DNA from: an uncultured bacterium
Lineage (GTDB): Bacteria; Chloroflexota; Limnocylindria; QHBO01
NCBI GenBank assembly: GCA_965652075.1
Contig: CBFGTN010000004.1
Location: 6,775 to 70,774, forward strand
Direction: 5' to 3'
Length of the DNA stretch: 64,000 bases
Below the pieces are notes generated by a model. It had not been told where the DNA came from and searched no databases. It saw nothing but the letters and a program-made list of their open reading frames with translations. Within the stretch, counting starts at the first letter, position 1. Every line of letters begins with the position of its first letter. Of the stretch, positions 2,759 through 37,649 are shown piece by piece. The translations under genes and the position numbers were made by a program.

Positions 2759-3276
2759 GCGGTCACTTCCTTTCGTCTGCCGGTGCGCCGGGCGGCGCCA
2801 TCGGTCTCGGCTTCGGCGGCCTCGGTCTCATGCATGCGAGCCAGGATGGCCGGCCACTCGCGTTCGAAGAAGCCATACAGGTCACGGATGTCGCGCAGCC
2901 GCGCCTGCGATTCGAGCGGGCGGTCGGCGATGAGGGCGAGCCCCGCCTCGGCGACCTCACGGTTCTGCCGGAGACGGTCGATCGCGACCTCCATGAGCCG
3001 ATGGAGCGCGTCCGGGGGGATGTCGAAGTACTCGCGCCGATCTCCCGAGCGCGTCCGGCGGCGGATGAGGCCGATCTGCTCCAGGAGCCTCGCCATCCCG
3101 CTCACCGACCCGCGGCTGGCCTGCAGCCGCTCGGCGAGCATCGCGGCGGTCTGCTCGGGCGGGTCGCAGATCGCGAGGTAGGCCCAGATTCGCCCGGCCA
3201 TCGGCGGCATGCCGGCGCCGAAGACCCGCGCGGCCTCCTCGATGAAGCTGTCCTCGTCCGTGATGTGCACGGCCAT
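2755..3276 (-). CDS. MarR/GbsR-like winged-helix transcriptional regulator of the ABC exporter operon
   Basis: About 175 aa with an HTH-like segment (AGRIWAYLAICDPPEQTAAMLAERLQASRGSVSGMARLLEQIGLIRR). It is the first gene of the regulator-ATPase-permease operon. The tracked ORF starts at a TTG at 3306; the ATG at 3276 is the more likely start. Confidence 0.6.
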   Translation of the reverse strand: MAVHITDEDSFIEEAARVFGAGMPPMAGRIWAYLAICDPPEQTAAMLAERLQASRGSVSGMARLLEQIGLIRRRTRSGDRREYFDIPPDALHRLMEVAIDRLRQNREVAEAGLALIADRPLESQARLRDIRDLYGFFEREWPAILARMHETEAAEAETDGAARRTGRRKEVTA

Positions 3277-3297
3277 CAGCCTGCGCTCTTCTGTGCG

Positions 3298-3313
3298 TTC
3301 AGTCAATACTGAA
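3298..3313. promoter_or_regulatory. Perfect palindrome TTCAGT-caat-ACTGAA next to the regulator start, followed by a CTTGAGCG direct repeat; putative operator
   Basis: Read directly in a locally AT-richer stretch. It lies about 22 nt upstream of the ATG at 3276 (or overlaps the TTG at 3306). The direct repeat CTTGAGCG-aaa-CTTGAGCG is at about 3322-3340. Confidence 0.3.
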
Positions 3314-3392
3314 TCATCAATCTTGAGCGAAACTTGAGCGGCCGAGGGTCCTGTTTCGCCCTCCGGCGAGGTCGGCTAGAATCGGCCCTCGC

Positions 3393-3467
3393 GCCGAAGT
3401 AGCTCAGGGGTAGAGCAACGGTTTCGTAAACCGTCGGTCGTGGGTTCGAATCCCACCTTCGGCTCCA
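3393..3467 (+). tRNA. tRNA-Thr (anticodon CGT)
   Basis: GCCGAAGTAGCTCAGGGGTAGAGCAACGGTTTCGTAAACCGTCGGTCGTGGGTTCGAATCCCACCTTCGGCTCCA. It has a 7-bp acceptor stem (GCCGAAG/CTTCGGC), a D-arm GCTCAGGGGTAGAGC, the anticodon loop TTCGTAA, a T-loop GGTTCGAATCC and an encoded CCA. Confidence 0.85.
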
Positions 3468-3471
3468 GCGT

Positions 3472-5388
3472 TCATGAAGCTGGGGGCGGGATCGCACGCC
3501 AGGGCGGACACCCGAGTCCGAGCCACTCCTCGAGGCCGATGCCGCTCTGCTCCGTCACCCGAGCGGCGACCTCGCTGTCGTCGGGGATGCACGGGACCGC
3601 GATCTCGCCGGAGATGATCCGCGCGCGGAGGTCCTCGAGCACCGGGCGGAACTCGTCCAGGAAGCCACCGCTGTACGCGATGTCGACGAGGCCCGATTCC
3701 AGGCCGTAGACCCGGACGGCCGGGGGAACGTCGCCGGCGGCGGTGTGCTCCAGCGCCTCGTGCACCGCCACGTCGTACCGCTTCATGACCGAGGTGAGGA
3801 TGTGCTGCCGCCACCCCCTGGGCACGTAGTAGCCCAGCGGGCTCTGGGCCTCGAACCAGTCGGTGTCGACGCCGATCACCCAGAGCCGACGCTCCTCCGA
3901 CGACAGCTCCGCCGCCGCCTGGACGATCCCCACCCCCGCAGGACCGGTGGCGCCGAACACCACGTCTGCGCCGTTCGCGAACATGCCGTGCGCCAGGGCG
4001 TTCGCCTGGTCCGGACTCTTGAACACCGATGCATCGGGCCACTCGCCCGCCCACGCGCTCAGGATCGTCACGCCCGGATCGACTGCCCGGGCGCCGGCCT
4101 CGTAGCCCGCGAGGAAGCTCCAGATGCCGATGGCCTTCCAGGCGCCGATGAAGCCGATCGTCCCCGTCTCCGATCTCAGCGCCGCCGCGGCGCCCGCAAG
4201 GAACGACGCCTCTTGCTCGCGGAAGTACACGTACGACACGTTCGGCGCATCCCCGACGTAGTCGAAGACGAGGTAGTGCGTGTCAGGGTGCTCGCGCACC
4301 GCACCATCGATCGAGGAGAGGTGGAACACGACGGCGAGCGCCGGGTGATCGTCCGACGCCTCGCCGACCCTCTGGAACCACTCCATCCGGCGCCATTCCT
4401 CGATGGTGTCAACCTCGGGCACATCGAACTTCCATCCGGCAAGCCCGAAGTCGCTGACGGCGCGGTCGAACCCCCACTCGACGCCCAGCAGCTCGCCACC
4501 CTTTCCAGCCCCGAACGTGACCAGGGAGACGCTGTGTCGCAGGGCATGATCCCGGCCGCGTGCCGCCGCGGCGGCCGTCGGCTCCAGCAGGAGCGACGGG
4601 TCGTGGACCAGGATGCGGTCATAAACCGTTCGGATCCGCGGCGAGGGATCGACGCCAAGCTCATCGCCAAGGCGGATTCGAAGGTCATCGAAGGTGCGGA
4701 GGGCATCGGCGTGCCGCCCGGAGCGATAGAGGGCCAGCATGAGCAGCTCGCGCGATCGCTCGCGCAGGGGATCGTCCGCGACCGCGGCGTTCAGCAGGCC
4801 GACGACCTCGCCATGGTGGCCTGCCGCGAGCTCCGCGGCCGCCAGGAGCTCGACCGCGTCCAGGTGCGTCTCGTTCAGCCGCCGGATGTGGGGCTGGGCG
4901 AACTCCTCGTATGCGAACTCGGCGAGGGGAGGTCCCTGCCACACCGTCAGCGCCGTCTGGAGCGTCGCCGTTCCGCGCTCCGCGTCGCCCGACTCGAGCA
5001 GCCTGGCCCCATCGCGAACGAGCTGCTCGAACCGCCAGGCGTCGATCGAGGCGCGGTCGGCCTCCAGGACATACCCGGGTGGCCGGGTCACGATCACCTC
5101 GGATGCGCCGAGTGGCTCCAGCGCCCGGCGGAGGCCGGAGACGTAGATCTCGATCGAGTGCGGCGCCGTCCGCGGCGCGCGTTCGCCCCACAGCAGGTTG
5201 ATCAGCCGATCGACCGGCACGATCTGCCCGGCGTGCAGCAGCAGGATGGCGAGCAGGGCACGCTGCTTGGGTGGTCCGAGCTCGACCACCGTACTGTCGC
5301 CGACCGCCGCCAGTGATCCGAGGACTCGGAACTCCACACGCCCTCCCGTGCGCCCATCCACTCGCCGGCTCGATGCGCGGCCCGTCAA
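3472..5388 (-). CDS. SARP/AfsR-family regulator (OmpR-type wHTH + BTAD) fused to a C-terminal BMP/PnrA-like periplasmic-binding-protein ligand domain
   Basis: N-terminus: FRVLGSLAAV...KQRALLAILLLHAGQIVPVDRLINLLWGE (SARP DNA-binding), then a TPR-like BTAD region. C-terminal half (NVSYVYFREQEASFLAGAAAA...VVFGATGPAGVGIVQAAAE...) resembles the BMP-family nucleoside-binding fold. 1-nt spacing to the upstream gene. Confidence 0.7.
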   Translation of the reverse strand: MTGRASSRRVDGRTGGRVEFRVLGSLAAVGDSTVVELGPPKQRALLAILLLHAGQIVPVDRLINLLWGERAPRTAPHSIEIYVSGLRRALEPLGASEVIVTRPPGYVLEADRASIDAWRFEQLVRDGARLLESGDAERGTATLQTALTVWQGPPLAEFAYEEFAQPHIRRLNETHLDAVELLAAAELAAGHHGEVVGLLNAAVADDPLRERSRELLMLALYRSGRHADALRTFDDLRIRLGDELGVDPSPRIRTVYDRILVHDPSLLLEPTAAAAARGRDHALRHSVSLVTFGAGKGGELLGVEWGFDRAVSDFGLAGWKFDVPEVDTIEEWRRMEWFQRVGEASDDHPALAVVFHLSSIDGAVREHPDTHYLVFDYVGDAPNVSYVYFREQEASFLAGAAAALRSETGTIGFIGAWKAIGIWSFLAGYEAGARAVDPGVTILSAWAGEWPDASVFKSPDQANALAHGMFANGADVVFGATGPAGVGIVQAAAELSSEERRLWVIGVDTDWFEAQSPLGYYVPRGWRQHILTSVMKRYDVAVHEALEHTAAGDVPPAVRVYGLESGLVDIAYSGGFLDEFRPVLEDLRARIISGEIAVPCIPDDSEVAARVTEQSGIGLEEWLGLGCPPWRAIPPPAS

Positions 5389-5389
5389 T

Positions 5390-6517
5390 CTAGTCTGACG
5401 ATCCGACGACCTCTTGGCGGTCGGAACCCGGCCAGGTGTCCGACAGCAGGTAGCCCTCGGGGAACGGGTCGGTCGGGTCCAGCAGCACCTCGGTCACGCC
5501 GGTGATCCACGCCTGCCCGGTGATCGCCGGAACGATCGCGCGCTTCGCCCCCACCGTCGTCTCGGCACGTACGCGCCCCTCGAACACCGACCCGATCACC
5601 GAGCGATGGGCCATGGCATCGCCGACTCGCATCAGCCCGCGCTCGTGCAGCGTCGCCATTCGAGCCGAGAGCCCCGTCCCCGTTGCGGAGCGGTCGAGGC
5701 GGCCGGGGGCGACGACGACGGCATTCAGAGAGGCAGCACCGAGGCCCTGCCACGGGCCGGCGAACTCGACGATGCTCACGCCGGCGATGTCGGCGTTCTC
5801 GGGATGGCGACACTCGAGCTGCTCGCGAGCTGCCAGCCGTATCCGCTCGCCGAGCGCTGCCAGGTCCTTCGCCTCCGATGGATCCAGCGCGAGTCCGAGC
5901 GCCTGCGCGTCGACGATCGCGTACCACATCCCCCCGTAGGCGACGTCGACGCTGATCGTCCCCGTGCCGGGAACCTCGACTGGGGCGTCGAGGCGTTCGG
6001 CGAACGATGGAACGTTGTCGATCGTCACAGCGGTGACCTGCCCGCCGTCGCACGCCGCCTCGATGGCGACGGGCCCGCCCGGCGCCTCCAGCTGGAAGCG
6101 GCTGACCGGCGGCGTCATCGGGACGATGCCCGTCTCGAGCAGCACGGTGGCCACGCACATCGAGTTCGACCCGGACATCGCCGGATACTCGGTGGGCTCC
6201 ATGATCACGAACCCGGCCAGGCAGTCCGCACGGCTCGAGGCGACGACCAGGTTGGCGTGCTGGGCGACACTGCCTCGCGGCTCTCGAAGCAGGAGCCGCC
6301 GAAGCGCGTCATCCGAGCGCAGCTTGCCCATCACCTCGTATACCGATGCACCCGCCGGCGCCCTCACCCCGGCGACGACGACGAGCCCGACCTCGCCACC
6401 GGCATGGCACCCGACGACCAGGATGCGCTGACGTGCGCGCCGACGCGGAGGCCAGTCGGGATCGTCGACGAAGGCCAGGCTGCCGGCCGCGTCGGGAAAT
6501 CGTTCGTCCGACGCCAT
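5390..6517 (-). CDS. Proline racemase-family enzyme with a Cys/Thr catalytic pair (trans-3-hydroxy-L-proline dehydratase-like rather than a racemase)
   Basis: The first catalytic motif SNSMC keeps its Cys. The second motif reads DRSATGTGLSA, with Thr in place of the second catalytic Cys of DRSPCGTG racemases/epimerases. Confidence 0.8.
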   Translation of the reverse strand: MASDERFPDAAGSLAFVDDPDWPPRRRARQRILVVGCHAGGEVGLVVVAGVRAPAGASVYEVMGKLRSDDALRRLLLREPRGSVAQHANLVVASSRADCLAGFVIMEPTEYPAMSGSNSMCVATVLLETGIVPMTPPVSRFQLEAPGGPVAIEAACDGGQVTAVTIDNVPSFAERLDAPVEVPGTGTISVDVAYGGMWYAIVDAQALGLALDPSEAKDLAALGERIRLAAREQLECRHPENADIAGVSIVEFAGPWQGLGAASLNAVVVAPGRLDRSATGTGLSARMATLHERGLMRVGDAMAHRSVIGSVFEGRVRAETTVGAKRAIVPAITGQAWITGVTEVLLDPTDPFPEGYLLSDTWPGSDRQEVVGSSD

Positions 6518-9087: not shown

Positions 9088-9774
9088 TCACCCGGCCGCT
9101 CGTGCGGCGAGCTCGCGCAGTGCGTCGTTCGGTCGGTCCCGCCAGGGCGGGTAGTGCGACAGGGCGATCAGGTCGACGTCGAGCTCCGTCAACCGGTCCA
9201 CGGACACCCGCGCCCCGGCGTGGTCATGGCTGAAGAAGGCGCTCGCGTAGGTCAGCCGGCCGCGGACGACCTGCAGCACGTCGCCGGTGAAGAGGATCCG
9301 CTGCCGCTCGAGATACAGGCAGATGCTTCCCGGCGTGTGCCCGGGGGTGTGGATGACCCGCAACCCGCCGAGGACTGGGACCAGCTCCCCGTCCTGGACC
9401 GTCGTGGGCTCGGTCGGCGCTCGGGTGAGGTACTGGATGATCCGGCCCCGGCGCTCGCCACGGGGCTCGGTCCGTGCAAGGGCCTCCCGCAACGGGCGTC
9501 GGAGCCCGGCGAGATCGTCCGGGTGGATGAGCACGATCACGTCCTCACGGTCGCGGACGATTTCCGACAGGCCACCGATGTGATCGGGATGACCGTGCGT
9601 GCAGACGATCCGCTCGAGCTCGTCGATGCGCCGGCCGATGCGTCGCAGGTACCGCAGCAGGGCCCGGCGCGACCCGACCATCCCGGCGTCGATGAGGGTC
9701 AGCCGCTCGTCGGCCAGGAGGAACGCATCGGCGCCCAGCATCCGCACCTGGTGGACGCCCGGGGCGATCTCCAT
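9088..9774 (-). CDS. MBL-fold metallo-hydrolase
   Basis: Carries the THGHPDHIGG (HxHxDH) metallo-beta-lactamase motif, plus downstream His and Asp ligand residues. Confidence 0.8.
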   Translation of the reverse strand: MEIAPGVHQVRMLGADAFLLADERLTLIDAGMVGSRRALLRYLRRIGRRIDELERIVCTHGHPDHIGGLSEIVRDREDVIVLIHPDDLAGLRRPLREALARTEPRGERRGRIIQYLTRAPTEPTTVQDGELVPVLGGLRVIHTPGHTPGSICLYLERQRILFTGDVLQVVRGRLTYASAFFSHDHAGARVSVDRLTELDVDLIALSHYPPWRDRPNDALRELAARAAG

Positions 9775-9794
9775 GGTGGCCGGGATTGTACGGC

Positions 9795-9826
9795 CGACGT
9801 CAGTGCGCGGGCCCGATCGTTGACGT
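9795..9826. promoter_or_regulatory. Inverted repeat GACGTCA-N18-TGACGTC in the divergent promoter region between the MBL hydrolase and the MFS–cNMP gene
   Basis: Perfect 7-bp arms read directly from the sequence. It sits between divergently transcribed genes, so it is a candidate operator (for example for a CRP/FNR-type regulator). Confidence 0.3.
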
Positions 9827-9881
9827 CCCTGCCGGCAAGTCCCTAGGCTCCGCCCACTGATTGGCGACGCTGGGGAGACCG

Positions 9882-11549
9882 ATGATCGCGCGACTCCGCG
9901 CTGACGCCGCGCGGTCCCTCGCCGCGTTCCGCGAGGCGATCGCGAACCCGGACATCCGCAACGTCGTCCTCACCGCGACCGCCTTCTTCTCCAGCCGATG
10001 GGCGTTGAACGTCAGCCTGTACGTGTACGCCTACCAGGTCGGCGGCGCCGGCTCGGTGGCCCTGATGGGCGTGATCCAGATGCTGCCGACGGTCCTCGCC
10101 GTCCCGGTCATCACCGGCATGGGCGACCAGTTCCGACGCCAGCGCGTTCTTGCCGTCATCTACGCCGGCGGCGCGGTGGCTGCCGTCTTCCTCGCGCTCG
10201 CATTCCAGGACACCGAGCACGCGGTGTGGGTGTTCATCCTCGCCGGCGTGTCCTCGGCCATCGGGGCCGCTGCCCGCCCGCTGCAGATGGCGCTCCTTCC
10301 GGCGTGTGCGAAGCGGCCCGGCGAGCTCATCGCCGCGAACGTCGTGTGCGGAGCGTCCGACGGCCTCGCCGCGATCTTCGGCCCGGCCGTGGCGGCGGTG
10401 ATTCTGGCCGTCGCTGGGCCCGAGGCCGTCGCCGTGGTCGTGGCCGTCACGCGAGGGGTCGCGGCGCTCTTCGTCATGCGCATCGGTGTGGCGCAGACCG
10501 TGGCGCCGCTCGCCGACCGGAGCTGGAAGCGTCCCGCCACCGTGTTCGGGGCCGCCGGGGACGGGCTGCGGGCGCTCGGGAGCCTGCCGGGTCCGCGGCT
10601 CCTCATCGGCGTGCTCTCGGTTCGGACCTTCGTGCGCGGGATGCTGATCGTCCTGCTGGTGGAGGCCGCGATCGCGGCCCTGCGAATGGGCGAGCCGGGG
10701 GTCGGCACGCTGAACGCGGCGATCGGCGTGGGCAGCGTGGTCGGCGGCATCTTCGCCCTCGGCCTCGTCAGCCAGCCGCGGCTTGCGCCGAGCCTGGCGC
10801 TCGGCCTCATCGGCCGCGGACTGCCGATCCTGCTGATCGGGATCTTCATGGACCCATTCGCCGCGATCGTGCTCCTCGCGATCTGCGGGCTCAGCAACTC
10901 GATCGTCGACACCTCGGCGTACACCCTGCTCCAGGGCACGGTGCCGGACCGGGTGCGGGCGGGGGTCCTTGGCGTCCTCGAGGCCGCGATCGGCCTGACG
11001 GTCGCGGCGGGTGAGATCACCGCACCGATCCTGCTCGATCGTCTCGGCGTCGAGGCGACATTCATCGTCGCCGGCGCCATCCTGCCCGTGGTCACGATCG
11101 GCCTCTGGCCCCTGCTGCGCCGTCTCGACGACCAGGTCCTCCCGCCGCGCGAGCTGCTGCGGCTGCTCAAGGGCGTCCCGATGTTCGAGCCGCTGTCGCT
11201 GGCGGTGATCGAGCAGCTGGCCGGCGGGATGCAGGTTGTCACATACGCGAAGGGCACCGAGATCATTCGCCAGGGAGAGGCGGGCGACGCGTTCTATCTC
11301 CTCATCGACGGGTCGGTCGAGGTGATCCGAGACGGAACCCACGTCGACGCCATCGGCGCCGGGGGGTCATTCGGCGAGGTGGCGCTCATCAGCGGAGAGC
11401 CGCGCAACGCGACCGTGCGCGCGACCGCGGACTGCCGCCTGTATCGGCTCGACGCCGCGACGTTCCTGTCGGCCGTGACCGGGAACCCCCACAGCCAGGC
11501 CGCCGCCGATCGCGTCGCCGGCGAGCGAGGGTGGGCCGGCCGAGCCTGA
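9882..11549 (+). CDS. MFS transporter fused to a C-terminal cyclic-nucleotide-binding (cNMP/CAP-effector) domain
   Basis: About 12 TM helices, then a cNMP-binding beta-roll (GEAGDAFYLLIDGSVEV...GAGGSFGEVALISGEPRNATVRA). Start taken at the ATG at 9882, downstream of the tracked TTG at 9861. Confidence 0.75.
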   Translation: MIARLRADAARSLAAFREAIANPDIRNVVLTATAFFSSRWALNVSLYVYAYQVGGAGSVALMGVIQMLPTVLAVPVITGMGDQFRRQRVLAVIYAGGAVAAVFLALAFQDTEHAVWVFILAGVSSAIGAAARPLQMALLPACAKRPGELIAANVVCGASDGLAAIFGPAVAAVILAVAGPEAVAVVVAVTRGVAALFVMRIGVAQTVAPLADRSWKRPATVFGAAGDGLRALGSLPGPRLLIGVLSVRTFVRGMLIVLLVEAAIAALRMGEPGVGTLNAAIGVGSVVGGIFALGLVSQPRLAPSLALGLIGRGLPILLIGIFMDPFAAIVLLAICGLSNSIVDTSAYTLLQGTVPDRVRAGVLGVLEAAIGLTVAAGEITAPILLDRLGVEATFIVAGAILPVVTIGLWPLLRRLDDQVLPPRELLRLLKGVPMFEPLSLAVIEQLAGGMQVVTYAKGTEIIRQGEAGDAFYLLIDGSVEVIRDGTHVDAIGAGGSFGEVALISGEPRNATVRATADCRLYRLDAATFLSAVTGNPHSQAAADRVAGERGWAGRA

Positions 11550-28627: not shown

Positions 28628-30358
28628 ATGCCCCCGCGCTCGACCCCGTTCGCCGCGCTGGCCGAGACCGCTGCGGCGGTCGGCGCGACCCGCAGCAAGA
28701 ACGCGAAGCGCGACATCCTCGCGGCCTACCTCCGCGGCCTTCCGCCCGCTGACCTGCCGGCGGCGACGGTCTTCTTTGCCGGCCGGCCGCTGATCGACCC
28801 GACGGCCAAGCTCGGCCTCGGCTGGGTGCAGCAGGGTGCGGCGCTCGCCGCGGCCAGCGGGGCCGGGCAGGATGCGCTGCGGGCGGCGTACCTGCGCCAC
28901 TCGGACTTCGGCGACGCCGCCGCCGACCTGGTCGCGTCGGGCGACGGCGCGCCGCTGACCGTCGCCGACGTCGCGAACGGATTCAGCGCGATCGCGTCGG
29001 CGGGGTCCGCCGCGGACCGCGTGACGCGGATGACCGAGCTGTACCGGCGAGCCTCCACCGAGGAGGCGCGCTTCATCGGTCGCGTCGCCTCGCGCGAGAC
29101 CCGCATCGGTCTCCGGGAGGGCCTGCTCGAGGAGGCCGTCGCCACGGCCTTCGACGCCGAGCCCGATGCGGTGAGGCGAGCGCACATGCTGACCGGGGAG
29201 ATCGGCGAGACCGCCGTGCTGGCTCGCGATGGACGCCTCGCCGAGGCCGCGCTGCACGTCGGGCGGCCGATCCGCTTCATGCTCGCGTCACCGGTCGCGG
29301 ACGCCGCCGAGGTCATGCGCCGGGTCGGCGACGAGGCGTGGATCGAGGACAAGTACGACGGCATCCGCGCCCAGCTCCACCTCGAGGAGGGCGGTACGCC
29401 GAGGCTCTTCAGCCGCGACCTGAACGACGTCACCCGCTCGTTCCCGGAGATCGTCGATGCCGCCGGTGCCCTGGCGACCGATGCGCCGCTCGTGATCGAC
29501 GGCGAGCTCGTGCCGTGGCGCGAGGGCTCCGTCCTCGACTTCGCCTCGCTCCAGACCCGGCTCGGCCGGGTCCGGCCCTCGAAGGAGCTCCTGGCCGAGG
29601 TCCCGGTCGTGCTCGTCGCCTTCGACCTGCTGCATCATGCCGGGCGCGATCTGCTCGAGCGGCCGCTCCGCGAGCGACGCTCGGCCCTCGACGCGCTTGG
29701 GCTGCCGGAGCGGACCGGCGAGCGGGTCCTTCGCTCGCACCTTGCATCCGCGCGCTCGGCGGCCGAGGTCGACACCGCGTTCGACGATGCGCGCGATCGG
29801 CACAACGAGGGGCTGATGGTCAAGGATCCGGATTCGACCTATCAGCCCGGCCGTCGGGGGCTCGGCTGGCTGAAGCTGAAGAAGGCGCTCGCAACTCTCG
29901 ACTGCGTCGTCGTCGGCGTCGAGTGGGGCCACGGCAAGCGCCGCGGCGTGCTCAGCGACTACACGTTCGCCGTGCGCGAGGCCGATGAGCCGGAGTCGCG
30001 GCTGCTGACGATCGGCAAGGCCTACACCGGGCTGACCGATGCGGAGATCGCCCGCATGACCGACTACTTCCACACCGTGACGCTCCAGGACTTCGGCCGC
30101 TACCGGACCGTGGTGCCGGAGGTCGTCGTCGAGATCGCCTTCGACCGGATCATGCGGTCGAGCCGTCATCGATCCGGCTTCGCGATGCGCTTCCCGCGGA
30201 TCGTCCGCATCCGGGAGGACAAGACGCCGGCCGAGATCGACACGCTGGCGACCGTCGAGGCGCTCTTCGGCGAGCAGGCATCGGGCCGCATCCTGCTCGC
30301 GACCGGCGCGCGTGGCGAGACCGAGCGCATCGCGGCCATCGGATCCGGCGACGAGTGA
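28628..30358 (+). CDS. ATP-dependent DNA ligase (LigB-type: N-terminal DNA-binding domain + adenylation + OB)
   Basis: Motif I EDKYDGIRAQ (KxDG), motif III/IV region LMVKDPDSTY, motif V GVEWGHGKRRG and motif VI, on a 576-aa three-domain layout. Confidence 0.85.
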   Translation: MPPRSTPFAALAETAAAVGATRSKNAKRDILAAYLRGLPPADLPAATVFFAGRPLIDPTAKLGLGWVQQGAALAAASGAGQDALRAAYLRHSDFGDAAADLVASGDGAPLTVADVANGFSAIASAGSAADRVTRMTELYRRASTEEARFIGRVASRETRIGLREGLLEEAVATAFDAEPDAVRRAHMLTGEIGETAVLARDGRLAEAALHVGRPIRFMLASPVADAAEVMRRVGDEAWIEDKYDGIRAQLHLEEGGTPRLFSRDLNDVTRSFPEIVDAAGALATDAPLVIDGELVPWREGSVLDFASLQTRLGRVRPSKELLAEVPVVLVAFDLLHHAGRDLLERPLRERRSALDALGLPERTGERVLRSHLASARSAAEVDTAFDDARDRHNEGLMVKDPDSTYQPGRRGLGWLKLKKALATLDCVVVGVEWGHGKRRGVLSDYTFAVREADEPESRLLTIGKAYTGLTDAEIARMTDYFHTVTLQDFGRYRTVVPEVVVEIAFDRIMRSSRHRSGFAMRFPRIVRIREDKTPAEIDTLATVEALFGEQASGRILLATGARGETERIAAIGSGDE

Positions 30359-30373
30359 CGTAGGATCGGGTCG

Positions 30374-30982
30374 ATGGCGGGGTTCGAGTCGGGGTCGTAC
30401 GGGGGTGGGGGAATCGGCGAGGCGGCGTCGGTTGAGGTCGACGTGTACACGTCGGCCTACCGGGTGACCGGGACGATCACGACGCGATTCGGTCGAGTCA
30501 CGGAGATTCTCAACCAGCTCGCCGGCGGCCACCTCGACATCGCGCGCGCGACGGTCAGCGAGCATGCCGACCCGTCCGCCACGCTTGGCGCGCCGTCCAC
30601 CCTCGTGGCGGTCGACGAGATCCTGATCATGGTGGCGCCCTCCCTTCCGGGCGGCGGTGGCGAGATGCGAATCCAGAAGCGCCCGGTCCGCGCGCAGCTG
30701 GCGGTCCCTCCGTTCCGCGTCGCCGGCACGATCCACGTCCCGATGGGCAGCCGGCCGATCGAGGGCCTGCTGCACGGCATCGAGGCATTCCAGGCGGTGA
30801 CGGATGCCACGATCGCGTCCGGGAGCTATCCCCAGCTCGAGCGGACCGCGCCGGTGCTTGCCCTGCGGCGGGATCGTGCCCACGTGCTGTTCGTCGCCGA
30901 CGACGAGAACCCGGACCAGCTCCTGGCCGAGGTCCTCGACGAGCGGACCGCCGAGGCCTGGCTCCACCCCGAGGAGCAGTGA
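30374..30982 (+). CDS. Hypothetical protein with an internal duplication, translationally coupled to the ligase
   Basis: Starts 16 nt after the ligase stop. Contains two related half-domains (YRVTGTITTRFGRVTEILNQLAGG and FRVAGTIHVPMGSRPIEGLLHG). Confidence 0.5.
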   Translation: MAGFESGSYGGGGIGEAASVEVDVYTSAYRVTGTITTRFGRVTEILNQLAGGHLDIARATVSEHADPSATLGAPSTLVAVDEILIMVAPSLPGGGGEMRIQKRPVRAQLAVPPFRVAGTIHVPMGSRPIEGLLHGIEAFQAVTDATIASGSYPQLERTAPVLALRRDRAHVLFVADDENPDQLLAEVLDERTAEAWLHPEEQ

Positions 30983-30989
30983 CGGCCGG

Positions 30990-31745
30990 CTAGCGTCCCC
31001 GGTCGACGGCCGGCGCCGCCGCGAGGTGGCGCGCGGGCTCGGCGGCGTCGAGGATGGCCTCGATCAGTCGCGCGCCGTCGGCGGGGTCCATGCGGCGGAC
31101 CCGCCCGATGGAGTTCGCCCACCACGGCGCGTTGTCGGAGGTCACGATCTCGTCCTCGGGCTCCTCGAGGACGATCTGCGAGTGCGGCCGCGGGAAGACG
31201 ACCACCGGCCGCATCGGCATGGCGGGAAGGCCGAGCTCATGCGCCCAGCGCGTCACGCTCTCGTTGAGCTTCTGAGCGTCCCAGCTCGGATTCGTGCGGC
31301 ACCTGATCCAGCCCCTCCGGCCGCGGGCGTCGAACTCCCAGGAGCGGCCGCGCACGCGGTAGTGGCCGACCCAGTCGCGCACGGTCAGGATGCGCACGCC
31401 GGCGGGCCCGACGAGGATCCCGTCGAGACGCGCCGCGTCGGGAATGGCCAGCTGGGGCGCGACGACGAGGGCGTAGCTGTCGTCGAACGTGCCGGCGAGC
31501 AGCGCGGCCATTGCGCCCGGCAGGTCACGGGATCGGTTCGGCCGCAGGAGACGGATGAGCCATGCCGCCCCGATCCCCAGGGCGAGGGCAGCCGTGGTCG
31601 CCCCCACCGCAGCGATCGTCGTGTTCGTCGGCCGGCTGAGCGTCAGCTCGACCGCGACGAGGCCGGCCGCGAGCATCGACCCGGCGAGGAGGATGGGACG
31701 CCGGCGCGCGGTGGCGGTCAGGGCCGTTGGCCGGATCACGCGCAT
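30990..31745 (-). CDS. Membrane-anchored hypothetical protein, possibly a NERD (nuclease-related) domain
   Basis: Two N-terminal TM helices, then a soluble region LDGILVGPAGVRILTVRDW that resembles the NERD PD-(D/E)xK-like core. This is weak, by-eye evidence only. Confidence 0.4.
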   Translation of the reverse strand: MRVIRPTALTATARRRPILLAGSMLAAGLVAVELTLSRPTNTTIAAVGATTAALALGIGAAWLIRLLRPNRSRDLPGAMAALLAGTFDDSYALVVAPQLAIPDAARLDGILVGPAGVRILTVRDWVGHYRVRGRSWEFDARGRRGWIRCRTNPSWDAQKLNESVTRWAHELGLPAMPMRPVVVFPRPHSQIVLEEPEDEIVTSDNAPWWANSIGRVRRMDPADGARLIEAILDAAEPARHLAAAPAVDRGR

Positions 31746-31777
31746 CGCGCGAGGCCTCCGTCGGCTAGGCTCGGGAC

Positions 31778-32248
31778 ATGTCCAACCACATTTCCGCCAG
31801 CGTCGACCCCATCACGTGTCGGGTCGATGCCCGGACGGACACCGGCCATGCCATCCCGATGGAGCTCGACGAGCCCGACGGCCCGAACCCTGTCGAGGCG
31901 CTGCTCGCGTCGCTCGCCGGATGCACGGGGATGGACGTCGCCAGCATCCTGCGCAAGAAGCGCCAGGACGCCGCCACGTACGAGATCGTCGTCGACGGCG
32001 ATCGCGCCGATGAGCATCCGCGCGTGTTCACCGCGCTGCGCGTCGAGCATCGGGTGAGCGGCAGGGTGGAGCCGGAGGCGCTCAGGCGCTCGATCGAGCT
32101 GTCGGCGACGAAGTACTGCCCGGTGAGCGCGATGCTCTCGGCCGTGGCGCGCGTCGAGCATCGCTACCACCTGGTCGACGAGGATGGCCACGAGCACGAG
32201 TCCGTCGTTGCGGTGCTCGGTCCCGGCGAGCGGCGTCCCCCGGCCTAG
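31778..32248 (+). CDS. OsmC/Ohr-family peroxiredoxin-like protein
   Basis: OsmC-fold motifs (PNPVEALLASLAGCTGMDV...LSATKYCPVSAML) with the conserved Cys pair. Confidence 0.8.
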   Translation: MSNHISASVDPITCRVDARTDTGHAIPMELDEPDGPNPVEALLASLAGCTGMDVASILRKKRQDAATYEIVVDGDRADEHPRVFTALRVEHRVSGRVEPEALRRSIELSATKYCPVSAMLSAVARVEHRYHLVDEDGHEHESVVAVLGPGERRPPA

Positions 32249-32259
32249 GGCCGCCGCGG

Positions 32260-32652
32260 TCACGACGCGGTACGAAGCTCGCGCGCCCCTTCGAGTGCCT
32301 CCTCGACGGCGGCGCGGAACGCATCGAGGTCGAAGGGCTTGGCGACGACCGGGCCGATGGGGGCGAGCTCCGCGAGCCGCTCGCGATTGGCCGCCGAGAC
32401 GAAGATGGCGGGGATCCCGGGCCAGGCCGAGCGCAGGAGCTCGGTGATGTCGCCGCCATCGCCATCGGGGAGCATGACGTCGACGACCATCAGGTGCGGC
32501 AGCGCGACGTCCATCAGGTCGCCGAGCTCGACGATGCGCGTGCAGGTCACGACGCTGAAGCCCATCTCGCGAAGGAGATCGGCCTCCAGGGCCGCGATGT
32601 CGGGATCGTCCTCGAGGACGTAGGCACGGGGGGCAGCCGACTCGTCATTCAT
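32260..32652 (-). CDS. Stand-alone response-regulator receiver domain (CheY-like)
   Basis: YVLEDDPDIAAL...LMVVDVMLPDGDG...VSAANRERL...AKPFDL. Start trimmed to MNDESAAPRAYVLEDD. Confidence 0.75.
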   Translation of the reverse strand: MNDESAAPRAYVLEDDPDIAALEADLLREMGFSVVTCTRIVELGDLMDVALPHLMVVDVMLPDGDGGDITELLRSAWPGIPAIFVSAANRERLAELAPIGPVVAKPFDLDAFRAAVEEALEGARELRTAS

Positions 32653-32783
32653 CGACGCCAAGTGTCGCCTCGGTGCCGATCGTGGTCTATGGCCCATCCG
32701 CGTAGTACCGATGGTCACGGGTGGGGGACCCTTGGAGCGCCGGTGTACCCTTCGGAGCCTCAGTACGGGAGCACGGCACGCAC

Positions 32784-33689
32784 ATGGCGCGATCGATGTG
32801 GCGGGGAGCAATCCAGTTCGGCCTGGTCACGATCCCGGTCAAGCTCTACCTGGCGACCGAGCAGGGCGGGATCGGCTTCAACCTCCTCCACCGCACCTGC
32901 CTGAACCGCATCCAGATGAAGGTGTACTGCCCGCATCACGACGAGGTCATCCCGCGCTCGGAGACGGTGCGTGGATACGAGTACAGCAAGGGCAAGTACG
33001 TCGTCGTCGAGGACGAGGACATCGACTCCGTGCCGCTCAAGACGGTCCGCGCGATCGAGATCGAGCTCTTCATCAACGCCTCGCGCGACGCGGAGGGCGT
33101 GCAGTTCGTGAAGCAGGCCTACTACCTGGAGCCTGAGCAGATCGGCGCGAAGGCGTTCTACCTGCTGAAGTCGGTCCTGGCCGAGCAGAACAAGAGCGCC
33201 ATCTGCAAGATCGTCCTCAAGGACCGCGAGCAGCTCGCATCGCTCAACCCCTTCGCGAAGACGATGCTCCTCACCACGCTGCACTGGCCCGATGAGGTCC
33301 GCGCCGTCGACGAGCTGAACCTTCCCGAGGACGAGATCGAGATCAAGGCGTCCGAGAAGAAGATGGCCGAGCAGCTCGTGGCCAGCATGACCGGCGACTT
33401 CGACGCCAGCGAGTACGCCGACGACTATCGCGAGGCGCTGATGGCGGTCATCGAGAAGAAGGTCGCCGGCGAGAAGCCGGAGCCTGCCGCGCGCGCCGAG
33501 CCGACGAACATCACCGACCTCATGGCCGCGCTCGAGGCCTCGGTCGCGGCAGCGCGCCAGGACCGCAAGGCGGAGCCTGCCGAACCGACGAAGGCCAGGG
33601 CGAAGCCGGCGCGGGCGAAGTCGACCAGGACCAAGAAGGCCACCGAAGAGGCGGAGGCTCCGCGGCAGCGGCGCCGCAAGACCGCCTGA
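32784..33689 (+). CDS. ku: Ku protein (non-homologous end joining) with a basic C-terminal tail
   Basis: MARSMWRGAIQFGLVTIPVKLYLATE... and YEYSKGKYVVVEDEDI are a typical bacterial Ku core. It ends in a Lys/Arg/Ala-rich tail. Start trimmed to the ATG at 32784. Confidence 0.9.
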   Translation: MARSMWRGAIQFGLVTIPVKLYLATEQGGIGFNLLHRTCLNRIQMKVYCPHHDEVIPRSETVRGYEYSKGKYVVVEDEDIDSVPLKTVRAIEIELFINASRDAEGVQFVKQAYYLEPEQIGAKAFYLLKSVLAEQNKSAICKIVLKDREQLASLNPFAKTMLLTTLHWPDEVRAVDELNLPEDEIEIKASEKKMAEQLVASMTGDFDASEYADDYREALMAVIEKKVAGEKPEPAARAEPTNITDLMAALEASVAAARQDRKAEPAEPTKARAKPARAKSTRTKKATEEAEAPRQRRRKTA

Positions 33690-33699
33690 TCCGCGGGTC

Positions 33700-34395
33700 G
33701 TGCCCGGCGAGCAGCTCGACCTTCCGATCCCGACCGAGCCCGGCCTGGCGCTCCCGGCGCGGCTCGTGCCGATGCAGCCGTCGGCGGGCGTCGGCCCGTT
33801 CGACGACCCTGCCTACCTCTTCGAGCCGTGGTGGCCCGGCGTTCGCGCTCTCGCCTGGATCGAGGGCGGACGGCTGGCTCGCCTGCAGGTGGAGGGCATG
33901 GCCGATGCGCTGTCGGCGTTCACCGAGCTGGGCGACGAGCTTCCGGGCCAGCTGGCCGTGGACGGCGTCGTGCTCGACGGCTGGCTGCTCGCGCTCGACG
34001 AGGGCGGCTGGCTCGACACCGACCTGCTGCGTCGGCGCCTCGCGGGCGAACGTTGGGCCGGACGCCCGGGGTTCGTCGCCTCCGACCTGCTCTGGAGCGA
34101 CGGGGCACCGTGGCACGCTCGGCGCTTCGCGACCCGCCGCGAGCACCTGGCGAGCATCCTCCGCGATGGCGACCGCTGCGTCGTGTCGCACGCGCTCGCC
34201 GGCGAGGGGACGCTCCTCGCCGAAGCGTTGGCGCGATTCGGCCTGACCGGCATCTCGGCCCGTCGGCTCGACGCGCGCTATCGCTTCGGCGCTGCCGGCG
34301 AGGGCTGGCTGCGCGTCCCGATCGCGCCGGCCGAGACGACCGAGCGTCCTCGCCTGGCCCTCATCCAGCGTTTGCCGCTCGACGAGCGCGACTAG
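33700..34395 (+). CDS. Degenerate LigD-like ligase adenylation-domain protein, predicted catalytically dead
   Basis: The first ~50 residues (FDDPAYLFEPWWPGVRALAWIEGGRLARL...FTELG) run collinear with the LigD ligase motif I region. The KxDG motif reads WWPG, losing the Lys nucleophile and the Asp. The motif IV/V lysine region reads TGISARRLDARYRFG. The protein ends after motif V with no OB domain. It starts 11 nt after Ku. Confidence 0.6.
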   Translation: MPGEQLDLPIPTEPGLALPARLVPMQPSAGVGPFDDPAYLFEPWWPGVRALAWIEGGRLARLQVEGMADALSAFTELGDELPGQLAVDGVVLDGWLLALDEGGWLDTDLLRRRLAGERWAGRPGFVASDLLWSDGAPWHARRFATRREHLASILRDGDRCVVSHALAGEGTLLAEALARFGLTGISARRLDARYRFGAAGEGWLRVPIAPAETTERPRLALIQRLPLDERD

Positions 34396-36614: not shown

Positions 36615-37649
36615 CTAGCTGGCATAACGGTCGGCAGCCTGGCGCACCGAGCTGGCGACCGCCTTGCGCAACGCCTCCGGCTCGAGCACCTCGACGGCAC
36701 CGCCCCACGACATGATCCACGGCTGGATCTCGACGATCCCGTTGACGGTGACCGCGAGCTCGAGGCGTCCCCTCGGCAGTTCCGTGAGCTCCTGCGACCG
36801 GTGCCAGACCGCCTCGCGCACGCGGTGCGCGACCGAGGGTTCGAAGCGCAGCCGCACGCGGACCGGCGGCGTCGAGTCCGGCGACCAGATGCCCCACGCG
36901 TTGGCGAGCCAGGCGTCCGGGTCGAAGTCGGAGGGGATCTCGTATCGGTCCTGCGTGAGCGTCGCCGAGCGGATGCGCTCGACCTTGTACGTCCGCATCG
37001 CCGCGGCCGGCTCGTCGTAGCCGATGAGGTAGACGCTGCGGAGCGCGGCGTCGGGCTCCAGAAAGTAGGGGTGGACGCGGGTGCGCTTCTCCGTGCCGGT
37101 CCCGGGGTCGTAGACCAGCTCGACGACTCGGCCCTCGGCCCAGCCCCGAGCGACCGCGCTGAAGCTGCGCGTGAACGGCTCGTTCGGGTCGTGGGAGCCG
37201 ACCGCGAGCATCGTCGCGGTCACGTGCCGCGCGATCGGCTGCGGAAGCGCGTCGGCGAGCTTCGTGAACGCGCTGACCACGGCCGCGTCGTACTGGTCGC
37301 TCCAGCGCGCGATGAGCCGGGATGCGAGGAAGAGGACGATCGCCTCCGGCACCGACAGTCGGAGCGGAGGCAGGAAGAACTTGCGGTCGATCCCGTAGTG
37401 CCCGCGACCGGCCTGGTACACGGGCACCCCGAGCTCCTCGTCGAGAGCGTTGATGTCGCGGTAGACCGTCCGCGTGGTCATGCCGGTCAGCCGCGCGATC
37501 TCGCTGACCGCCACGCCCGTCTCGGTCCCGCCCTTGGAGTAGAGGATCGAGACGACGCTCAGCAGCCGGGCCAGCCGATCGCGCTTGCGCCCGATCCGGT
37601 CGTCGCCGCCGTCACCCCAGCCAGACCACCGATCGCTCTCGTCCAGCAC
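36615..37649 (-). CDS. WYL-domain transcriptional regulator (HTH–WYL–WCX; PafB/PafC-like)
   Basis: N-terminal HTH (VAVSEIARLTGMTTRTVYRDINALDEEL), a central WYL-type beta domain (RVHPYFLEPDAALRSVYLIGYD) and a C-terminal extension. Confidence 0.75.
   Translation of the reverse strand: MLDESDRWSGWGDGGDDRIGRKRDRLARLLSVVSILYSKGGTETGVAVSEIARLTGMTTRTVYRDINALDEELGVPVYQAGRGHYGIDRKFFLPPLRLSVPEAIVLFLASRLIARWSDQYDAAVVSAFTKLADALPQPIARHVTATMLAVGSHDPNEPFTRSFSAVARGWAEGRVVELVYDPGTGTEKRTRVHPYFLEPDAALRSVYLIGYDEPAAAMRTYKVERIRSATLTQDRYEIPSDFDPDAWLANAWGIWSPDSTPPVRVRLRFEPSVAHRVREAVWHRSQELTELPRGRLELAVTVNGIVEIQPWIMSWGGAVEVLEPEALRKAVASSVRQAADRYAS

Follow-up and report, generated by a model that had tools for sequence, protein, structure and literature searches.

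The gene directly behind ku in the window (the whole 64,000-nucleotide stretch of DNA analyzed) encodes a LigD ligase NTase-domain paralog that is predicted to be dead, lacks an OB domain, and is free of lysine (33700-34395, + strand; 231 aa, GTG start). This protein, hereafter the dead ligase, most likely assists DNA break repair without acting as an enzyme. It is read here, with a probability of about 0.55, as a non-catalytic accessory to an end-joining module built on Ku, and its binding partners are inferred. Purifying selection on the gene is as strong as on ku. The earlier note on this DNA had suggested a conserved non-catalytic ligase-like gene, and the invariance of its degenerate motif, its low dN/dS, and its ku linkage bear this suggestion out.

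By sequence and profile comparison, the dead ligase is genuinely homologous to the ligase adenylation (NTase) domain of LigD, with a similarity far beyond chance. In phmmer searches, it matches the M. tuberculosis LigD ligase domain (LigDom; 1VS0 and 6NHX) at E values of 3-5e-9, with WWPG lying exactly over KWDG and an identity of 28% to 6NHX. Profile-profile alignment with active LigD/LigC-type ligases (hhalign) returns a probability of 100% and an E value of 3.5e-47, excluding the chance similarity that had been set beforehand as a refuting condition. The NCBIfam models PRK09632 (LigD) and TIGR02779 are matched at E values of 1.7e-20 (72.9 bits, cut-off 989) and 3e-14 (52.8 bits, cut-off 227.75), and Pfam PF01068 at only 0.003 (17.7 bits, cut-off 26.2). 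Thus, the curated cut-off expected of an ATP-dependent DNA ligase is not met for any of the three models, as would be expected of a degenerate family member. Pfam and NCBIfam hold no dedicated curated family for the dead ligase, only generic ligase models, all of which score below cut-off. Together, phmmer, NCBIfam, and the profile-profile alignment confirm the homology of the first ~50 residues to the ligase motif I region that had been noticed earlier. The dead ligase is also predicted to keep the NTase fold. An AF2 model built on a 25-sequence alignment has a pLDDT of 87.3 and a pTM of 0.84, and its top 50 Foldseek matches in the PDB are without exception adenylation domains of ATP-dependent DNA ligases (TMq 0.63-0.75). 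The adenylation fold of an ATP-dependent DNA ligase is therefore a criterion that AF2, Foldseek, and hhalign find to be met.

The catalytic motifs within this fold are degenerate. Motif I (33820-33846, + strand) reads FEPWWPGVR where ligases have FExKWDGxR. The Lys nucleophile is replaced by Trp44 and the Asp by Pro46, while Gly47 and Arg49 are retained. Both replacements had been proposed from the letters alone and are confirmed in the profile alignment to active ligase NTase domains; the stretch quoted at that time, FDDPAYLFEPWWPGVRALAWIEGGRLARL, is found in the dead-ligase protein. Motif III (33973-33984, + strand) is LDGW instead of LDGE, with Trp95 for the Glu, a position that is Trp in 54 and Thr in 22 of the 78 genomic loci and never Glu. 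Motif IIIa (34072-34092, + strand) reads FVASDLL for the ligase FvaFDLL, keeping Phe125 and Asp129 and replacing the second Phe with Ser128. Motif IV (34246-34263, + strand) has changed from EGIVAK to TGISAR (Glu to Thr183, Lys to Arg188), and motif V (residues 203-207; 34306-34320, + strand) from WLKxK to WLRVP (Lys to Arg205, Lys to Pro207). These assignments follow the hhalign pairing of FEPWWPG with FE-KWDG, LdG-LL with LDGEiV, SARR with VAKR, and WLR-P with WlKiK. GISARR, earlier taken for motif V, actually belongs to motif IV (EGxxAK to TGISAR). The earlier note also had the protein stopping right after motif V without an OB domain. The absence of the domain holds, since no profile match to the OB domain (PF04679) with motif VI is present in the dead ligase, but the chain does not stop there: its C-terminus lies 24 residues past motif V, in a tail with ERPRLALIQRLPL.

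The case for a catalytically dead protein is consequently stronger than first proposed, as motifs III, IIIa (second Phe), IV, and V are lost along with motif I and not a single lysine is present in the protein. Lysine is likewise absent from 116 of 127 dead-ligase family members, compared with 3.2% lysine in active ligase neighbours. Without a lysine anywhere in the dead ligase, lysyl-AMP formation is impossible. An ATP-dependent DNA ligase would require a KxDG motif I with its lysine nucleophile (here WWPG), as well as the motif III Glu, motif IV ExxxxK, and motif V KxK; none of these requirements is met, and the changes are conserved family-wide. Sequence thus predicts a protein incapable of self-adenylylation and nick sealing. 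The scaffold is better preserved. Of 23 positions that are invariant in active ligases, 15 are kept (E42, W45, G47, R49, R61, L77, D93, G94, D129, R147, L150, G170, A187, Y194, and W203), and those that are lost include the catalytic residues.

The link to end joining comes from gene order. The upstream gene, ku (32784-33689, + strand), encodes a 301-aa protein with a Lys/Arg-rich C-terminal tail and matches TIGR02772 (Ku_bact, E = 6.4e-80) and Pfam PF02735 (E = 3e-39). An intergenic gap of 10 nt separates it from the dead-ligase ORF on the same strand, bearing out the arrangement of ku followed by a 231-aa ligase-domain ORF described earlier. Across the family, ku lies immediately 5' of the dead-ligase gene on the same strand in 78 of 78 loci; the two genes are about 10-20 nt apart or overlap by 4 nt. 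The linkage also holds in members at 48-52% identity that otherwise have different neighbours. The constant same-strand position and tight spacing behind ku imply co-expression, and the conserved operonic linkage expected of a Ku-associated NHEJ component is met.

Two conserved terminal peptides flank the dead domain. The N-terminal peptide, MPGEQLDLPIPTE, contains the short linear motif QLDLPI (residues 5-10; 33712-33729, + strand), which resembles β-clamp-binding motifs; no binding data exist. Residues 1-14 form a disordered N-terminus in the AF2 model (pLDDT < 50). A motif of the form Q[LM]x[LMF]x[LIFMV] precedes motif I by 35-37 residues in 131 of 140 family proteins and at 71 of 78 genomic loci, and it is found at that site in none of 27 active ligase neighbours. 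Its background rate is 1.1e-4 per residue, corresponding to 0.0016 expected occurrences per N-terminal window. The closest known counterpart is the clamp motif of E. coli Hda, 6-QLSLPL-11, in which L7, L9, P10, and L11 contact the clamp cleft (PMC5397184). These residues correspond to L6, L8, P9, and I10 of the dead ligase, and the near-identical hexapeptides each lie in a flexible segment, equally far from the N-terminus. However, Hda is an AAA+ protein and the rest of the two proteins is unrelated, so the resemblance is at the motif level only. A clamp-binding protein is expected to carry a peptide of the QL[SD]LF or QLxLxL type in a flexible, accessible segment, which the dead ligase does at the level of sequence alone. 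The QLxLx[LI] peptide may have a target other than the clamp, and the literature searched yielded no link between the β clamp and bacterial NHEJ.

At the other end, the C-terminal tail ERPRLALIQRLPL (34342-34380, + strand) takes the place of the OB domain and is nearly invariant in 121 close homologs. The RLPL tail is present in 131 of 159 family proteins, many of the others being fragments, and at 75 of 78 loci. It also occurs in P0159 and P0219, the two family proteins with the motif I variants FEPRWGG and FEPWWGG. The eukaryotic A-type Ku-binding motif, RKRxLPxW, binds the vWA domain of Ku80. Bacterial Ku lacks this domain, and an identification of the RLPL tail with the A-type motif was dropped for that reason.

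Comparison with known systems places the dead ligase between repair ligases and repair scaffolds. With the LigD LigDom (M. tuberculosis Rv0938; 1VS0, 6NHX; PRK09632, TIGR02779), it shares a homologous NTase domain, the same predicted fold, and ku linkage. Unlike that domain, it has no motif I, III, IV, or V catalytic residues, second IIIa Phe, lysine, OB domain, Pol, or PE, and it has gained the conserved N-terminal QLxLx[LI] peptide and C-terminal RLPL tail. The stand-alone NHEJ ligases, mycobacterial and Streptomyces LigC and archaeal Methanocella Lig, are encoded apart from Pol and PE and work with Ku. They resemble the dead ligase as small ligase-domain-only proteins, but they are active and keep both KxDG and the OB domain, neither of which the dead ligase has. 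ImuB of the mycobacterial ImuA'-ImuB-DnaE2 mutasome is also a dead relative of a repair enzyme that is under selection, is a proposed hub, and carries a clamp-type peptide. In ImuB, this peptide is 352-QLPLWG-357, and its clamp binding has been demonstrated (PMC10421592). The two proteins differ in fold and pathway, ImuB having a Y-family polymerase fold and acting in translesion synthesis, whereas the dead ligase has a ligase NTase domain, is linked to end joining, and lacks clamp-binding data. XRCC4, XLF, and PAXX are non-enzymatic factors that sit at DNA ends with Ku or the ligase and organize ligation. As non-enzymatic NHEJ scaffolds, they offer a functional analogy only, since they have no sequence or fold kinship with the dead ligase, are not ligase-derived, and bind eukaryote-specific Ku and LigIV domains.

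If the dead ligase does not seal breaks, another enzyme would have to do so. The window encodes an intact Lig1/LigB-type ATP-dependent DNA ligase (28628-30358, + strand; 576 aa; Pfam DNA_ligase_A_N, A_M, and A_C), a candidate sealing enzyme with the motifs KYDG(242), DGE(291), FDLL(332), EGLMVK(394), and WLKLKK(414) in place. A ligase of this type lies upstream on the same strand in 53 of 55 Limnocylindria loci. The LigD criterion of Pol (PF21686) and/or PE (PF13298) fused or adjacent to an active ligase domain is not met. tblastn searches with 12 full-length LigDs match the window at 29.3-30.3 kb and 33.7-34.3 kb only, confirming the earlier statement that it contains no LigD polymerase or phosphoesterase. 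A survey of related loci, covering 10 kb on each side and not whole genomes, found no Pol or PE in 84 of 85. By these searches, neither the window nor the neighbouring genes conceal a Pol or PE domain. The exception is the divergent locus L086, where a separate, genuine full LigD is encoded directly downstream of the dead ligase. In the divergent loci L087 and L088, the synteny with the Lig1/LigB-type ligase is gone. The sealing enzyme is therefore not settled. It would most likely be the syntenic intact Lig1/LigB-type enzyme in Limnocylindria, and in at least one divergent lineage, it may be the LigD encoded immediately downstream.

Within the proposed accessory role, the retained NTase scaffold would dock on Ku, a step inferred without binding data. 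In M. tuberculosis LigD, the LIG-domain residues D522, K579, and L580 touch the Ku C-terminus (bioRxiv 10.64898/2025.12.12.693941). Their equivalents in the window protein are V87, E148, and H149, so residue identity is not conserved. Most dead-ligase members have Glu or Asp at position 87, and D88 is invariant. An acidic protein (pI 5) would suit the basic tail of Ku. Both terminal peptides are inferred to tether further factors to Ku-bound ends. QLDLPI may engage the β sliding clamp in the fashion of Hda and ImuB, although binding data are lacking, and the RLPL tail may engage a partner of unknown identity. That the dead ligase serves as a scaffold recruiting the LigB-type ligase, as suggested earlier, is likewise an inference.

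Several other explanations have to be weighed against this role, and family-wide conservation decides the one closest to hand. A genuine LigD ligase gene that had recently become a pseudogene, or one altered by a strain-specific mutation or by a sequencing error, would account for the missing catalytic residues, which are all that speaks for it apart from JGI pipelines calling the homologs LigD. Matches to the dead ligase number 418 stretches among GTDB species representatives. The identical protein is found on four independent assemblies, and an open frame of about 231 aa is intact in more than 120 homologs. WWPG is invariant in 121 of 121 close homologs and 77 of 78 species-level genomic loci, the most distant family members are at about 45% identity, and no relative within the family carries an intact KxDG. 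The dN/dS ratio is 0.09-0.14 (dS 0.5-0.7), compared with 0.13-0.23 for ku and 0.11-0.14 for the neighbouring ligase. The broken frame, patchy conservation, and dN/dS near 1 that define a pseudogene are thus not met, and the replacement residues are themselves invariant. These data, which include the dN/dS and WWPG checks proposed by the earlier note, refute decay or error, leaving it practically no credence. A protein that is still an enzyme, as a non-canonical nucleotidyltransferase or ligase, or a nucleotide-binding sensor, is very improbable. The fold is kept, and the pocket residues F125, D93, G94, and R49 remain. However, the family is overwhelmingly lysine-free; the Asp of motif I, the Glu of motif III, both Glu and Lys of motif IV, and the Lys residues of motif V have been lost together; W44, W45, and W95 occupy pocket-lining positions; and no new invariant polar residue set stands out beyond the scaffold residues shared with ligases.

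Two non-catalytic alternatives are harder to separate from the accessory role. The dead ligase could be a negative regulator or decoy whose NTase domain occupies the DNA end itself or the site on the Ku C-terminus where a ligase would dock. Ku-bound ends would then be kept unligated, restraining mutagenic end joining until a signal or a partner displaces the dead ligase. The facts behind Ku association, namely selection and the linkage at all 78 loci, fit this explanation too. Keeping the scaffold while losing all chemistry is a typical competitive pseudoenzyme design, and in L086 the dead ligase sits between ku and a genuine LigD, where a competitor makes sense. No evidence separates inhibition from recruitment. 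Nevertheless, the two conserved terminal peptides suggest partner recruitment rather than mere blocking, and one-operon co-expression at a fixed stoichiometry with Ku is odd for a switchable inhibitor, so a decoy is possible but unlikely. A DNA-binding subunit, in which the NTase fold senses a nick or 5'-phosphate end with Arg in place of Lys and marks or protects ends beside Ku, is a little more doubtful still. NTase domains of ligases touch the nick. Basic residues through which ligases contact DNA or phosphate have conserved counterparts in R49 (the Arg of motif I KxDGxR), R188, and R205, and the dead ligase has 25 Arg in total. Against this, the protein has an acidic pI overall (5.0; family median 5.2) and lacks the OB domain, which completes the DNA clamp in ligases. 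DNA binding is also generally weak in isolated NTase domains.

The Ku-associated adaptor remains the preferred reading, and a more ambitious form of it can be offered only tentatively. NHEJ in Limnocylindria and related Chloroflexota might be a three-part machine, in which an obligate pseudoenzyme on Ku couples ends to the β clamp and a Lig1/LigB-like ligase through QLDLPI and RLPL. This extension is itself unlikely on present evidence. If true, bacteria would have their own equivalent of the XRCC4/XLF scaffolds and of PCNA-coupled Lig1, and end joining would for the first time be tied to the β clamp.

Textbook bacterial NHEJ is a minimal two-protein system of Ku plus LigD. A conserved, selected, Ku-linked third component suggests that bacterial end joining has scaffold or adaptor subunits, here as a non-catalytic protein across a whole class of abundant soil Chloroflexota. 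The dead ligase would also provide a clear example of a DNA-ligase pseudoenzyme, and it raises the question of whether a Lig1/LigB-type ligase is able to serve Ku-dependent end joining. No description of it was found in the searchable literature, including surveys of NHEJ and Ku evolution; subscription journals were mostly not covered, and a prior description is possible. JGI annotates dead-ligase homologs as 'bifunctional NHEJ protein LigD', and this database label is wrong. Genome surveys have scored NHEJ as Ku plus a LIG domain (PMC7719229). Given the 'LigD' pipeline naming, such surveys would credit these organisms with complete NHEJ because of a protein that is predicted to be unable to ligate.

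The surroundings of the operon also bear on its regulation. A PafBC-like WYL transcription regulator (36615-37649, - strand; HTH_11/HTH_PafC, WYL, and WCX, Pfam families recorded for an identical locus) is encoded downstream in 62 of 65 loci. A promoter-like element, CCTTGG-N10-TACCCT, lies 5' of ku (32730-32753, + strand; family consensus gnTTGCnggncCGgTGTAccaTca), its function being inferred. It is present in 66 of 74 aligned ku upstream regions and is unique in the window (PWM 23.8, no other match > 14). The PafBC -26/-10 promoter has the form tGTCgg(N10)tA(N3)T (PMC8635444). The layout of a hexamer, N10, and TAnnnT is alike in the ku element and the mycobacterial PafBC box, but the sequences are unlike (TTGC vs GTCgg), and an identification of the two was rejected in favor of an analogy. 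A regulatory link from the WYL regulator to ku is likewise inferred. Given its own conserved promoter element and the syntenic PafBC-like WYL regulator, the operon of ku and the dead ligase is probably DNA-damage-induced.

The ku gene (32784-33689, + strand; TIGR02772, E 6e-80; Pfam Ku, E 3e-39) is followed after 10 nt by a 231-aa ORF with a GTG start (33700-34395, + strand), which contains ...PFDDPAYLFEPWWPGVRALAWIEGGRLARL..., as the earlier note read it. The stop codon of this ORF is overlapped by the next gene, which is convergent; thus, ku and the ORF form a two-gene unit. The encoded protein, here called the dead ligase, is truly homologous to the adenylation (NTase) domain of LigD-type ligases. 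It is matched by the NCBIfam LigD model PRK09632 (E 1.7e-20, model positions 475-657 of 781), the NHEJ ligase-domain model TIGR02779 (E 3e-14), and Pfam PF01068 (only E 0.003), with all three scores far under the curated cut-offs. A phmmer search of PDB sequences retrieves the Mycobacterium tuberculosis LigD ligase domain (1VS0, 6NHX, and 6NHZ; E 3-5e-9). Profile-profile comparison of the dead-ligase family with 22 active LigD/LigC-type ligases (probability 100%, E 3.5e-47, 196 columns) establishes that the resemblance is not a chance likeness. AlphaFold2, given an alignment of 25 sequences, predicts the structure with confidence (pLDDT 87.3, pTM 0.84) and with disorder only at residues 1-14 and 228-231. 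The best Foldseek matches of this model in the PDB are all ATP-dependent DNA ligase adenylation domains (TM 0.63-0.75), including 6NHX at 28% identity.

Pairwise and profile alignments are concordant on the motifs that have been lost. In motif I, K481-W-D483-G is replaced by W44-W45-P46-G47; the nucleophile and the Asp are lost, in agreement with the Trp and Pro substitutions first read from the sequence, while the Gly and Arg49 are retained. Motif III changes from LDGE530 to LDGW95, motif IIIa from FwaFDLL to FVASDLL (losing the second Phe), motif IV from E613-G-V-I-A-K618 to T183-G-I-S-A-R188, and motif V from W-V-K635-x-K637 to W-L-R205-V-P207. The GISARR segment previously assigned to motif V is actually motif IV. 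The protein was also said to stop right after motif V without an OB domain. The OB domain, which is required for ligase reaction steps, is indeed absent, but 24 residues follow motif V in its place. Judged from its sequence, the dead ligase is predicted to be unable to form the lysyl-AMP intermediate. The family retains 15 of the 23 positions invariant in active ligases (E42, W45, G47, R49, R61, L77, D93, G94, D129, R147, L150, G170, A187, Y194, and W203), and the catalytic residues are among those lost. Pseudoenzymes typically show such a pattern, which is unlike the product of random decay. The dead ligase is classified here as a pseudoenzyme that derives from the LigD ligase domain.

An identical protein is found on four independent assemblies, and the 120 best database homologs are all ~231 aa long, with 73-93% identity. 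Across these homologs, W44, W45, and P46 do not vary, and neither do the Trp of motif III and most of the other substituted residues; G47 is kept in 120/121 sequences. A wider search of 1.84 billion 50%-identity representatives delineates a coherent family down to ~45% identity, whose members are marked by FEPWWPG, SARR, WLRxP, and the C-terminal tail and have W, T, F, V, or M in place of the motif III Glu. The next sequences beyond it are ordinary KWDG/LDGE/EGxxAK/WLKxK ligases. No family member among these representatives carries KxDG; relatives with the same ORF and an intact motif are absent from the family, and WWPG is conserved. GTDB species representatives contain 418 stretches that encode a relative. 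Among the top 80, nearly all are Limnocylindria or Chloroflexota MAGs, and the few contigs binned to other taxa are inferred to be probably mis-binned. Motif I is WWPG in 77 of 78 loci from this set, and the motif III position is W in 54 and T in 22. The dN/dS of the dead ligase is 0.09-0.14 (Nei-Gojobori, six closest species, dS 0.5-0.7), which indicates purifying selection; ku gives 0.13-0.23 and the neighbouring ligase 0.11-0.14. The four assemblies, the invariant W44-W45-P46, and the dN/dS speak against a recent pseudogene, a possibility raised in the earlier note, or a sequencing error, and this explanation is effectively refuted. The dead ligase is not a pseudogene.

All 78 loci with enough sequence have ku directly upstream on the same strand. 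The linkage extends to members at 48-50% identity with otherwise unrelated neighbours (loci L087 and L088); in L087, the ku stop and dead-ligase start overlap by 4 nt. Because ku linkage persists where other neighbours vary, the conserved core is the ku and dead-ligase pair, and the dead ligase, maintained by selection, is an obligate neighbour of ku. An intact three-domain Lig1/LigB-type ligase, here called LigB-type (in the window at 28628-30358, + strand, with KYDG, DGE, FDLL, EGLMVK, and WLKLKK present), lies 3-6 kb upstream in 53/55 Limnocylindria-type loci, and this synteny is clade-specific. No LigD polymerase (Pol) or phosphoesterase (PE) domain is encoded in the window, as had been noted, nor within 10 kb either side in 84/85 loci. 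The exception, L086 (ENA ERZ25039517 contig_144200, 777-5543; lineage GC 73%), encodes ku, then a dead ligase (FEPWWPGI, LDATL; ~52% identity), then a complete LigD with PE, KWDG ligase, and Pol. Its assembly is frameshift-prone, with gene calls fused or split (protein P0165 is such a fusion). L086 thus shows that some organisms have both a pseudo-ligase and a real LigD.

Both termini of the dead ligase carry conserved peptides. Residues 5-10, QLDLPI, lie within the disordered N-terminus. At 35-37 residues ahead of motif I, 131/140 family proteins with intact N-termini and 71/78 genomic loci have the pattern Q[LM]x[LMF]x[LIFMV], which is found in 0/27 active ligase neighbours. In ORFs from all six frames of these loci, its background rate is 1.1e-4 per residue, which corresponds to an expectation of 0.0016 in a stretch of 15 residues. 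QLDLPI matches, as a sequence and without binding data, the bacterial beta-clamp-binding motif. Similar peptides are the N-terminal 6-QLSLPL-11 of Hda, which contacts the clamp cleft via L7, L9, P10, and L11 (PMC5397184), and QLPLWG of ImuB (PMC10421592). The C-terminal peptide ERPRLALIQRLPL (residues 215-227) is nearly invariant in close homologs and has the family-wide form RPxLxL(L/I)xRLPL. It also occurs in the lysine-less variants P0159 (FEPRWGG) and P0219 (FEPWWGG).

The best-supported reading, given a probability of about 0.55 in the absence of binding data, is that the dead ligase serves Ku-dependent end joining as an adaptor or accessory subunit without catalytic activity. It would dock on Ku through its retained NTase scaffold, the acidic protein fitting the basic Ku tail, and the terminal peptides would recruit partners: QLDLPI the beta clamp, and the RLPL tail an unidentified factor, possibly the syntenic LigB-type ligase. 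The closest conceptual precedent is ImuB, a dead polymerase acting as a clamp-tethered hub; in eukaryotic NHEJ, the functional analogues are XRCC4, XLF, and PAXX. The M. tuberculosis LigD ligase domain contacts the Ku C-terminus via D522, K579, and L580 (bioRxiv 10.64898/2025.12.12.693941). However, the identity of the counterpart residues is not conserved in the dead ligase, a weak point for the adaptor model; further weak points are that the clamp-like peptide could serve a different partner and that synteny with the LigB-type ligase is clade-specific. A decoy or negative regulator that fills the ligase-docking site on Ku is possible, though doubtful. Somewhat less likely still is a subunit that binds DNA ends or nicks; the protein has an acidic pI and lacks an OB domain, and both features count against this role. 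Residual non-canonical catalysis or nucleotide sensing is very improbable. The dead ligase challenges the two-component picture of bacterial NHEJ and gives directly testable hypotheses of specialist interest.

A conserved promoter/operator-like element upstream of ku (consensus gnTTGCnggncCGgTGTAccaTca, 32730-32753) is found in 66/74 loci and is unique in the window. With TTGC/G-N10-TAnnnT, it has a hexamer-N10-TAnnnT layout that parallels the PafBC -26/-10 promoter, tGTCgg(N10)tA(N3)T (PMC8635444). A PafBC-like regulator (HTH_11/HTH_PafC, WYL, and WCX; 36615-37649, - strand) is encoded downstream of the gene pair, as in 62/65 loci, and may be a damage-responsive regulator of the ku operon. 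The promoter layout and the syntenic WYL regulator suggest, by inference, that ku and dead-ligase expression is damage-inducible. In a ~57%-identity clade, the regulator gene is immediately downstream and convergent (e.g., L064, 10717-11712). A second conserved block, GGTCTATGGCC...T(A/G)GTACC...ATGG (~32697-32727), lies just upstream of the element, in the intergenic region common to ku and the response regulator gene. In most relatives (e.g., L014-L034), the ku leader is longer and includes, ~40-90 nt before the ATG, a conserved CCGCCCGCG...GGGCA-CGGCGG segment that could form a hairpin. The leader in the window lacks it, and the promoter element is at -54 versus about -88 to -95 in relatives.

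Between the LigB-type ligase and ku lies a conserved gene string (30374-32652) encoding a DUF6812-like protein (30374-30982), a 251-aa protein without family match (30990-31745, - strand), OsmC (31778-32248), and a stand-alone response-regulator receiver divergent from ku (32260-32652, - strand). With the LEA_5/KGG stress protein found upstream of the LigB-type ligase in L001, L002, L004, and L005, it looks like a stress or desiccation island. In L087, whose member P0124 (50% identity) is on a 1.88-Mb contig, a beta-CASP/RMMBL metallo-nuclease gene (9261-10394) lies 550 nt downstream of the ku and dead-ligase pair. As this is the enzyme family of Artemis/SNM1, the nuclease may be an end-processing partner.

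No dedicated model for the dead-ligase family exists in Pfam or NCBIfam. Homologs are named "hypothetical protein" by NCBI and "bifunctional NHEJ protein LigD" by JGI, and the dead ligase thus reveals systematic mis-annotation. No description of a Ku-linked dead ligase was found in full-text literature or surveys of NHEJ/Ku evolution; subscription journals are poorly covered, and an earlier report is not excluded. Among the 50%-identity representatives, absence of the motif I lysine is not confined to this family and is seen in further LigD/LigC-like proteins: P0164 (FEVWWEG), P0217 (FEVLWDG), P0154 (FEPLYDG), P0242 (YEVLWDG), P0256 (YEVIWAG), P0195 (FEVLWEG), and P0208 (FEVLWGG). The three scanned (P0164, P0217, and P0154) all keep the OB domain. 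Pseudo-ligases may extend beyond this family and may have evolved repeatedly. In P0159, P0219, P0183, P0220, P0231, P0260, and P0265, xWGG replaces KWDG (FEPRWGG, FEPWWGG, FEPVWGG, and others). P0159 and P0219 have a QLxLxL N-terminus and the RLPL tail in common, and P0159 retains the motif III Glu; the contig that carries P0159 (L089) ends within the gene upstream of it. These xWGG relatives could be intermediates in a degeneration series.

The dead ligase contains 0 Lys and 25 Arg (pI 5.0), and 116/127 full-length family members have no lysine. Active ligase neighbours average 3.2% Lys; in the window, Ku has 8.3% and the LigB-type ligase 2.1%. This near-total absence exceeds the loss of catalytic lysines alone. 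One possible cause is selection to avoid lysine-directed chemistry at DNA ends, such as adenylylation, acylation, or Schiff-base crosslinking to abasic sites. Another is simply GC bias; the DUF6812 and Wzy_C proteins in the window are also very lysine-poor.
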